From a virus (lineage: Duplodnaviria; Caudoviricetes): 64,000 nt of DNA. Location: IMG/VR virus record IMGVR_UViG_3300044611_001018; one strand, given 5' to 3'. The notes under the pieces are model-generated. The model was not told where the DNA came from and searched no databases. It saw only the letters and a list, made by a program, of their open reading frames with translations. Position numbers and translations under genes: made by a program. Shown here in pieces: positions 25,443 through 27,653 of the stretch (its first letter is position 1; the number at the start of each line of letters is the position of its first letter).

Positions 25443-25490
25443 AGTATTTGATTTCTTATAGTATAATATATCTATATTATTTTGTCAAAC

Positions 25491-26361: not shown

Positions 26362-26433
26362 TGGGCGAAGAGGGGATCGAACCCCCGACCGACTGGGTGT
26401 AAACCAGTAGCTCTACCGCTGAGCTATTCGCCC
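26362..26433 (-). tRNA. tRNA-Val(TAC)
   Basis: Cloverleaf, ACTGG-TTTACAC-CCAGT. Confidence 0.96.
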
Positions 26434-26614
26434 TTAATGAGTAGTGAGTGCCCACCACTCGCGGAAGACACTTTCCGCAAAAGCTTCACTTTCGTGAAGA
26501 GTCAATAGACACGCTATTGACATGTTTTTTGTTACTGGCGGGGGTGATCAAGTCCCCGACCTAAGCGAACTTAGGATTTAGTAAGGAAGACCCAGACATT
26601 TCTAGACCTTCCAA
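26434..26614 (-). ncRNA. Unassigned seven-hairpin RNA between tRNA-Asn and tRNA-Val
   Basis: Back-to-back hairpins with GAAA and TTCG tetraloops and G-U pairs only on minus strand. Confidence 0.65.
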
Positions 26615-26686
26615 CTGCCCAGCCTGGGATCGAACCAGGGACCAATCGATTAACAGTCGATAGCTCTACCGCTGAGCTACTAGGCA
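26615..26686 (-). tRNA. tRNA-Asn(GTT)
   Basis: Cloverleaf, ATCGA-CTGTTAA-TCGAT; promoter at 26715-26743. Confidence 0.96.
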
Positions 26687-26757
26687 TTATATTTTTTTAT
26701 TTAATCACCTATAAATGTTATCACACTTATTTTAAATTGTCAAGTAGGTTTTTTTAT

Positions 26758-27456
26758 TTAGAGTAAATCATCAATCTTAACTTTTTGATCAAAGCATAAA
26801 CAATACCTTGGGGTTGACAAAGTATTATAAACCATATGAGTAGTATTTCCCCAAAAAAACATAAATTTATTATTTTCAAAATATTCACTAAATACTCCCT
26901 TTTGAGTATTCAATGCCAAAAATGCATACTCATCTTTAGATGATTGAACGTCTAATCCCCACAAACCCCTAATAGTGATGTAATCATCATCAGAAGGATC
27001 ATTATCTACATGCCAGTCAATTGCTTTACCTGGATAAACAACACTAATACCAACCCTTTGTCTTAAACCAGACTGATAAGAAACATTAGTTAAAGTTGGT
27101 AGATATTCTGCATTATCGCTGTAAATAATATCTCTTTCATAATCTATATGAGCCTTGGTTTTGTAAACATGCTCATAGTAATGTCTATTCTGTTCAATAT
27201 AATTATTATATTCAAGATATAATGCAGCAACTTGCCACCCATCATATGGGTTTGATTTTACAGACGTGTAATAATTATTACCTGCCCAATTTGTCCAAAT
27301 AAGTTTATCCTTATTTTGATTAAACTCTTCAACAATTGATTGATAATTGTCAGAGAGGAGTTTAAGTTCAGGATTTATTTCTTCTAAAGAATAAAATCTT
27401 CCCATAATAGTATGAAATATCAGTAATGGATCTGGTGATATATGTAACATACTCAA
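26758..27456 (-). CDS. AspH-like 2OG oxygenase
   Basis: WQVAAL, ISVVYPG, WHVD, THMVYN...RYCL. Confidence 0.7.
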   Translation of the reverse strand: MSMLHISPDPLLIFHTIMGRFYSLEEINPELKLLSDNYQSIVEEFNQNKDKLIWTNWAGNNYYTSVKSNPYDGWQVAALYLEYNNYIEQNRHYYEHVYKTKAHIDYERDIIYSDNAEYLPTLTNVSYQSGLRQRVGISVVYPGKAIDWHVDNDPSDDDYITIRGLWGLDVQSSKDEYAFLALNTQKGVFSEYFENNKFMFFWGNTTHMVYNTLSTPRYCLCFDQKVKIDDLL

Positions 27457-27624: not shown

Positions 27625-27653
27625 ATTATACCAGTGATGGATTTAATTGTCAA
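27625..27653 (-). promoter_or_regulatory. Consensus sigma70 promoter for tRNA-Arg/Ala
   Basis: TTGACA-N17-TATAAT. Confidence 0.9.

Follow-up and report, generated by a model that had tools for sequence, protein, structure and literature searches.

Conserved modular hairpin elements behind tRNA-Asn in the tRNA arrays of freshwater T4-like cyanophages

Bacteriophage T4 encodes two stable RNAs, RNAC and RNAD, whose role is unknown (PMC3014915) and which have been seen on Northern blots (PMC9697503). Both of these noncoding RNAs, the species 1 and 2 stable RNAs, are encoded inside the tRNA cluster, on the same strand as the tRNAs and right behind one of them; in the T4 annotation, rnaD starts 1 nt after tRNA-Arg and rnaC starts 6 nt after rnaD. 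Comparable layouts occur outside phages. In Escherichia coli, the 3' external transcribed spacer of leuZ is a tRNA-precursor fragment that is freed by tRNA processing and acts in trans as a sponge for sRNAs, working through a single-stranded pairing region and Hfq. In the TMERs of murine gammaherpesvirus 68 and in plant tRNA-snoRNA genes, hairpins right behind a tRNA or tRNA-like unit are freed by tRNase Z; these are eukaryotic pol III units, and TMER-type hairpins enter the miRNA pathway. The element described here is almost fully helical, unlike the leuZ sponge, and its likeness to that RNA, as to the TMERs and the tRNA-snoRNA genes, is one of layout only. Cyanophages of the group considered here also carry the conserved structured RNAs PhotoRC-II, wcaG, manA and glnA of Rfam. 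Those RNAs, however, are leaders of protein genes rather than tRNA spacers, and none matches the element at E-values up to 10.

The locus was found in a 64,000-nt stretch of viral DNA (IMG/VR record IMGVR_UViG_3300044611_001018), referred to below as the window. The window comes from a T4-like cyanophage, with psbA, nrdA and nrdB genes, PhotoRC-II and wcaG RNAs, and ten tRNAs on the minus strand. Its NrdA is 85% identical to those of Synechococcus myoviruses, and the sequencing runs that contain its DNA are freshwater or lake metagenomes. An earlier sequence-only reading had proposed a discrete 181-nt, seven-hairpin RNA bracketed exactly by tRNA-Asn and tRNA-Val. The calls of ARAGORN and Rfam put these two tRNAs at positions that make 26434-26614 the exact spacer between them, with the element beginning immediately past the discriminator base of tRNA-Asn. 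The features of the locus, in the direction of the tRNAs, are as follows.

26715-26743, minus strand: sigma-70-like promoter, TTGACA-17-TAACAT with an extended TG, 28 nt upstream of tRNA-Asn, from a consensus scan only
26615-26686, minus strand: tRNA-Asn(GUU), called by ARAGORN and scoring 65.6 bits with the Rfam tRNA model; CCA not encoded
26434-26614, minus strand: spacer element, consisting of modules A (hp1), C (hp2 and hp3), G (hp4 and hp5), E (hp6) and F (hp7) and a 5-nt tail
26585-26612, minus strand: hp1 (module A), 12-13 bp, AAUG loop, central tandem G-U (G-A in relatives), invariant U-G pair
26560-26575 and 26539-26558, minus strand: hp2 and hp3 (module C), primary sequence highly conserved, including the hp3 loop AYUUGAUCA
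26501-26521 and 26484-26499, minus strand: hp4 (loop CGUGU) and hp5 (GAAA loop), forming optional module G
26461-26478, minus strand: hp6 (module E), 6-bp stem with a near-invariant hexaloop AGUGUC
26439-26460, minus strand: hp7 (module F), 9-bp stem, GCAC loop with an invariant G-U as its closing pair; 5 nt separate the helix from tRNA-Val
26362-26433, minus strand: tRNA-Val(UAC), called by ARAGORN and Rfam, the downstream neighbour of the element

The spacer is strongly structured on the strand of its tRNAs. Its minimum free energy is -64 kcal/mol, compared with -44.1 ± 4.0 for 200 shuffled sequences, none of which folds as well (z = -4.98). The predicted fold holds all seven hairpins as previously described: hp1 with 12 bp and three G-U pairs, hp2 as CCUAAG-UUCG-CUUAGG, hp3 as CGGGG/CCCCG, hp4 as GUCAAUAG/CUAUUGAC, hp5 as CUUCAC-GAAA-GUGAAG, hp6 as GCGGAA/UUCCGC, and hp7. 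The hp1 G-U pairs become mismatches on the plus strand, which folds less well (-57.9, z = -4.23). A further proposed stem, the junction UUACU/AGUAA, appears in the minimum free energy structure but is missing from the centroid; among 47 relatives it is 50.9% paired, no better than in shuffles. No long-range helix joining the modules was found in the relatives. Three other pairings were considered and set aside. An AAAUCC/GGAUUU pairing within module C is contradicted by a C/U polymorphism at its key position, pairing of hp1 with the T stem of tRNA-Asn fails in phage S-SRM01, and, for a pseudoknot of the hp1 loop (AAAUG) with the 3' tail (CAUUU), the loop and tail variants do not co-vary as judged by eye.

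The element fits no described class. Among the 4227 models of Rfam 15, which include ribozymes, tRNA, tmRNA, manA, wcaG and YrlA, only the models for the two flanking tRNAs reach the gathering threshold, and at E-values up to 10 no family is matched by the element. The best match that touches it, SpF41, scores 22.8 bits against a threshold of 52 and is driven by the T arm of tRNA-Asn. Rfam likewise finds nothing inside the spacers at the loci of seven relatives. The element contains a single open reading frame, of 29 codons; it begins within hp4, part of a non-conserved module that is missing from most relatives, and a protein-coding element is rejected on that ground. A scan of the minus strand finds no intrinsic terminator within the element; AUUAA alone lies between hp7 and tRNA-Val.

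In a BLAST search against 50,697 phage records, the only match to the element is in the freshwater Synechococcus phage S-SRM01, which has a 207-nt spacer between tRNA-Asn and tRNA-Thr. The 5' hairpin there is the same as that of the window, and the 3' end has the same two abutting hairpins with several compensatory changes in their stems, while the middle differs. The closest IMG/VR record retains hp1 to hp3, followed by quite different sequence. IMG/VR was searched with four pattern scans, each anchored on a different module. The scans return 233 loci, with hp1 in 201, the hp6-hp7 pair in 164, and both in 145; module C is carried by more than 114 contigs. There are 117 distinct spacers from tRNA-Asn to the next tRNA, with lengths of 71 to 316 nt among the 69 listed.

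These spacers show that the element is modular and collinear. What had been described as a fixed 181-nt RNA with seven hairpins is one combination of interchangeable modules. Module A stands at the 5' end, and modules E and F abut at the 3' end. Between them occur module B, module C, module D, module G, and larger multi-stem inserts, some with tRNA-type T arms, all of these being optional. The A-C-G-E-F combination of the window recurs in one IMG/VR contig, L008, and module G is found unchanged in few other spacer types only (L008, L067, L076). The window has the features that define the family, namely hp1 with its AAUG loop behind tRNA-Asn and the hp6-hp7 pair with AGUGUC and GGCAC loops, and model R1, built for hp6-hp7, scores it at 74.1 bits (E = 2e-14). 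None of the modules occurs throughout the family: L080 and L092 are without hp1, and 27 spacer types are without the hp6-hp7 core. A relative of 175 kb, 82% complete, keeps only modules A and C behind tRNA-Asn, so the core is dispensable in some lineages. In L080, whose spacer is 71 nt, the module-D hairpin (1516-1537) is present as its exact reverse complement (AUUAGAGGG in place of CCCUCUAAU), with an unchanged stem and the loop inverted, which looks like a DNA inversion across the inverted repeat.

What stays constant in the family is position relative to the tRNAs. Of the 201 loci with hp1, 177 have tRNA-Asn(GUU) immediately before it, 7 have an Asn-like tRNA that goes uncalled by ARAGORN but has a GUU loop, and 3 have tRNA-Thr; hp1 starts 0-2 nt past the upstream tRNA. 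The next tRNA downstream varies among Thr, Val, Leu(UAG), Leu(CAA), Met and Ala, or is replaced by a further structured or tRNA-like module. The element is tied to tRNA-Asn, not to the Asn/Val pair. At the other end, the last helix (hp7) stops 3-5 nt short of the next tRNA in 132 of 158 loci, and 2-5 nt short in 133.

Many of these arrays hold tRNA-like material. The Asn-like tRNA that precedes hp1 in L125, L006, L029, L187, L199 and L216, and that ARAGORN misses, has a 7-bp acceptor stem, a CUGUUAA anticodon loop, an unusual D region, and GGCAGUA where the T loop would be. In L168 and L169, 5'-truncated copies of tRNA-Asn, with the anticodon and T arms or the T arm only, stand before hp1. In L011, L050, L075, L076, L095, L159, L172 and L209, hp1 is separated from the modules that follow by an insert containing a perfect T-arm-like hairpin (GUAGG-UUCGAUA-CCUAC); ARAGORN calls this insert tRNA-Phe(GAA) in some contigs. 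A module of about 100 nt closed by GUAGGUG/CACCUAC follows hp7 in L050 (10532-10720), L007, L065, L081 and L092, and follows hp3 in the nearest relative of the window, L002 (1650-1830). The tRNA-like unit after this module is called tRNA-His(AUG) by ARAGORN and goes unscored by the Rfam tRNA model. Group I intron and abiF motifs, at the Rfam gathering level, adjoin the tRNA arrays in L065 (3595-3789 and 3820-3856) and L104 (2367-2403).

The modules might therefore be read as decayed former tRNA genes in a fast-shuffling array, neutral or weakly selected. The T-arm-like GUAGGUUCGAUACCUAC module, the truncated tRNA-Asn copies and the uncalled Asn-like tRNA are what such a history would leave, as is the gain and loss of modules between close relatives. 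Moreover, hp3 with its preceding GGUC resembles a variable-loop and T-arm segment with small insertions when compared with tRNA-Val of the window. Against this, hp1, hp6 and hp7 lack the geometry of tRNA arms, ARAGORN calls no tRNA within 26434-26614, and the Rfam tRNA model, at E-values up to 10, sees nothing tRNA-like there. Compensatory changes and invariant loops across many lineages, described below, signify purifying selection on both structure and sequence, and we regard descent by decay as unlikely.

Covariation among the homologs, proposed earlier as a check on the element, was assessed in four alignments, two of which (A1 and A2) have the window as first row. Alignment A1 holds 37 distinct sequences of hp6 and hp7 selected by pattern. 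In it 99.8% of the cells are paired (100% in hp6) and five pairs have changes on both sides, values far above those of shuffled and slid controls. Alignment A4 is an independent set of 29 distinct rows, found by way of module C or D, with model R1 providing the alignment, so that its loops are unconstrained. Changes on both sides occur here in 4 of the 6 hp6 pairs and 6 of the 9 hp7 pairs, the same AGUGUC loop sits on at least five different hp6 stems, and a G-U pair closes the hp7 loop in 29 of 29 rows. For hp1 (A2, 51 distinct sequences), 94% of cells are paired and six pairs show changes on both sides. One U-G pair does not vary, a further position alternates between G-U and G-A without ever becoming G-C, and the AAUG loop is nearly fixed. 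For all three of these hairpins, covariation exceeds that of the shuffled and slid controls. Of the three outcomes that the sequence-only reading had named as refuting it, two, a described Rfam family and a lack of covariation, are therefore not borne out. Module C (A3, 47 distinct sequences of hp2 and hp3) is 98% paired and mostly invariant, with two pairs changed on both sides, and hp4 and hp5 are identical wherever present and so carry no covariation information.

The conserved apical loops are AAUG/AUGUCU in hp1, AGUGUC in hp6 and GGCAC in hp7. That the stems of hp1, hp6 and hp7 covary while their loops and several G-U pairs stay essentially invariant suggests that these hairpins are recognized sequence-specifically by a protein or another RNA.

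The sequence-only reading had pointed to kissing contacts among the loops, and the complementarity it saw is real: hp4 and hp6 both have GUGUC at their loops, and hp7 has GGCAC. Contacts of hp7 with hp6 and hp4 would give a compact fold or RNA dimers. The complementarity spans 5-7 positions, and in A4 eight one-sided changes preserve the pairing (U-G to U-A six times, C-G once, G-U once). Yet no pair is changed on both sides, five cells break the pairing (GGUCAC and AGCGUC loops), and in L159 the hp6 and hp7 loops are both altered without compensation. An intramolecular contact would also be sterically hard, as no linker separates hp6 from hp7. The kissing contacts are thus without covariation support, and we consider them quite improbable.

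Three loops of the element in the window display U-G-U-C: hp1 (AUGUCU), hp4 (GUGUCU) and hp6 (GUGUCU). The same four bases occupy positions 33-36 of the anticodon loop of tRNA-Asp, and U-G-U is common to tRNA-Asn. tRNA-guanine transglycosylase and anticodon nucleases of the colicin E5 type recognize U-G-U in a hairpin loop. Conceivably, the hairpins act as decoys and divert an enzyme whose targets are the anticodon loops of the G-U-N tRNAs (Asn, Asp, His, Tyr); the element does stay joined to a phage tRNA-Asn(GUU), even where that tRNA is degenerate. We consider this reading improbable. If it were true, the phage RNA would soak up a host tRNA-cleaving defense enzyme while the linked tRNA replaces the loss, a new RNA-based form of counter-defense. 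A phage-encoded TGT or DpdA was considered as the partner and dismissed, PF01702 being absent from five carrier genomes.

The sequence around the element bears on how it is expressed. The promoter-like site ahead of tRNA-Asn lies in upstream sequence that recurs in the near relative L002, and it likely starts a transcript running through tRNA-Asn, the element and tRNA-Val. The gap between the element and tRNA-Val contains no terminator and is too short for a promoter, so co-transcription is the natural reading of the locus. Elsewhere in the window, a perfect sigma-70 consensus promoter (TTGACA-17-TATAAT with TG; 27625-27653, minus strand) precedes tRNA-Arg/Ala, and a site matching 11 of 12 positions (25460-25488, minus strand) precedes tRNA-Ser; judged from these sites, an early promoter seems to stand ahead of each tRNA sub-cluster. 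An ORF of 232 aa (26758-27456, minus strand), which lies immediately before the promoter of tRNA-Asn, has a weak match to PF05118, the Asp/Asn beta-hydroxylase family (23 bits, cut-off 22.6). Among four runs examined, two metatranscriptomes contain Logan contigs of close relatives, one of 151 nt and one of 190 nt, at depth 2-6. They cover 26442-26586 and 26463-26646, the latter bridging into tRNA-Asn. These contigs attest presence in RNA libraries, with DNA carry-over possible, rather than ends, strand or level, and the stretches that they leave uncovered are uninformative.

Its structure, conservation, position and strand establish the spacer as one member of a real, strand-specific family of conserved, modular, structured noncoding RNAs behind tRNA-Asn. 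We tentatively favor the view, at somewhat less than even odds, that these RNAs are transcribed with the flanking tRNAs, are excised by tRNA processing, and act in trans as a docking platform. By this mechanism, tRNA-Asn, the element and the next tRNA would be transcribed together from an early promoter of sigma-70 type. Processing of the 3' end of tRNA-Asn, expected to be of the RNase Z type because no CCA is encoded, and cleavage by RNase P at the next tRNA would then cut the element out. In the RNA so released, only 0-2 nt would precede the 13-bp helix at the 5' end and 3-5 nt would follow the 9-bp helix at the 3' end, and such ends should resist exonucleases. Release as a stable small RNA in this manner is plausible, given helices that abut the flanking tRNAs, no promoter room and no terminator. 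In the last and most speculative step, the released RNA, or its separate hairpins, would dock a partner in trans. We rank a released RNA that acts in trans or binds protein first because the stems covary freely while loops and wobble pairs are invariant. It is odd, for one RNA with one function, that no module is universal, and the lack of a long-range helix between modules counts against one RNA tied together as a unit. In addition, RNase E might cut in the AU-rich linkers that separate the hairpins, in which case fragments would arise instead of one lasting 181-nt species.

The same ends can be explained in cis. A possible reading, to which we give about one chance in three, is that the element is a processing or insulating spacer whose terminal hairpins serve the neighboring tRNAs, with any excised piece a by-product. 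Here hp1 would define or shield the 3' end of tRNA-Asn, which has no encoded CCA, for instance as a minihelix-like cut site or an exonuclease stop. The hp6-hp7 pair would ensure that the following tRNA has a short, defined 5' leader for RNase P, and the middle modules would be self-folding filler that prevents mispairing of tRNAs with near-identical D arms. This comes a close second to a released RNA because the distances to the tRNA ends are fixed (0-2 nt and 3-5 nt) while the interior modules are freely exchanged, and the downstream tRNA varies as well. Replacement at the ends points the same way: L080, without hp1, has another hairpin directly behind tRNA-Asn, and in L110, without hp6-hp7, it is hp3 that stops 4-5 nt short of the following tRNA. 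All seven hairpins persist when the complete precursor from tRNA-Asn to tRNA-Val is folded.

Marine cyanophages also have long spacers behind tRNA-Asn (98-153 nt), which open with a hairpin 2-3 nt past the tRNA and continue with unrelated sequence, again in keeping with a role in cis.

L234, 466-618: spacer behind tRNA-Asn in S-8S55
L235, 468-565: spacer behind tRNA-Asn in S-H34
L236, 466-592: spacer behind tRNA-Asn in S-SCSM2R

These are rejected as homologs of the element, as model R1 finds nothing in them and their folds are weak (z from -0.6 to -1.3). A plain structural spacer, however, needs no invariant loops or G-U pairs, and other tRNA pairs in the window, by ARAGORN, are 0-37 nt apart and joined without any such element. 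A role in cis also leaves unexplained why tRNA-Asn, even in the form of degenerate Asn-like tRNAs, keeps the element. A released RNA recognized through its loops remains our first choice.

The carriers are freshwater T4-like cyanophages (Kyanoviridae). Model R1 gives one match to the hp6-hp7 core in each of five genomes of 177-249 kb, and the window too holds a single copy; a dispersed repeat or mobile hairpin element is rejected on this single copy per genome. R1 finds no core in T4, in the freshwater phage S-CRM01, or in the three marine cyanophages. A host origin is rejected as well: in 185,579 prokaryote genomes the hp6-hp7 pattern has no match, and the module-C pattern has one chance match, in a coding region of Pseudonocardia. 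A looser hp1 pattern is too degenerate to be informative. One contig from a freshwater picocyanobacterial MAG (Vulcanococcus), L293, of 607 bp and low coverage, has tRNA-Asn, a 78-nt element of the A-C type, tRNA-Leu(UAG) and tRNA-Ala. It is probably a mis-binned phage fragment, and its binning offers a weak hint at the host group.

The comparison with T4 can now be made directly. The precedent of RNAC and RNAD, to which the sequence-only reading had appealed, holds for position. In sequence and structure the RNAs are unrelated: with filters off, R1 reaches at most 8.1 bits on the T4 tRNA region, with no match over rnaC or rnaD, and finds none in the whole T4 genome. T4 rnaC (L137, 2909-3047) is as strongly folded as the element (z = -4.57), but it ends in a tRNA-type T arm (CCGGG-UUCGAAU-CCCGG) inside its closing stem, which the element of the window lacks; rnaD is not notably structured (z = -0.83). 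RNAC and RNAD end their cluster, whereas the cyanophage element is bracketed by tRNAs, modular, and tied to tRNA-Asn. On these comparisons they are positional analogs rather than homologs.

The structured RNA family is new to Rfam and, as far as searched, to the literature, while its kind, noncoding RNAs in phage tRNA clusters, is known. A 2023 catalog of 8,495 candidate viral RNAs from IMG/VR (PMC10690425) may include pieces of the element. The element is a sound candidate for a new Rfam family. RNAs of the RNAC and RNAD type are still unexplained after about fifty years, and this family offers a far better basis for comparison: its natural variants number in the hundreds, its stems covary clearly, the constancy of its loops and wobble pairs points to a specific partner, and some variants lack whole modules by nature. 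Phage S-SRM01 on Synechococcus KCZYC6 is the only cultured pair of carrier and host, and it makes the element directly testable. The family is relevant to the processing and protection of tRNA transcripts by phages, and perhaps to a tRNA-centered conflict between phage and host.
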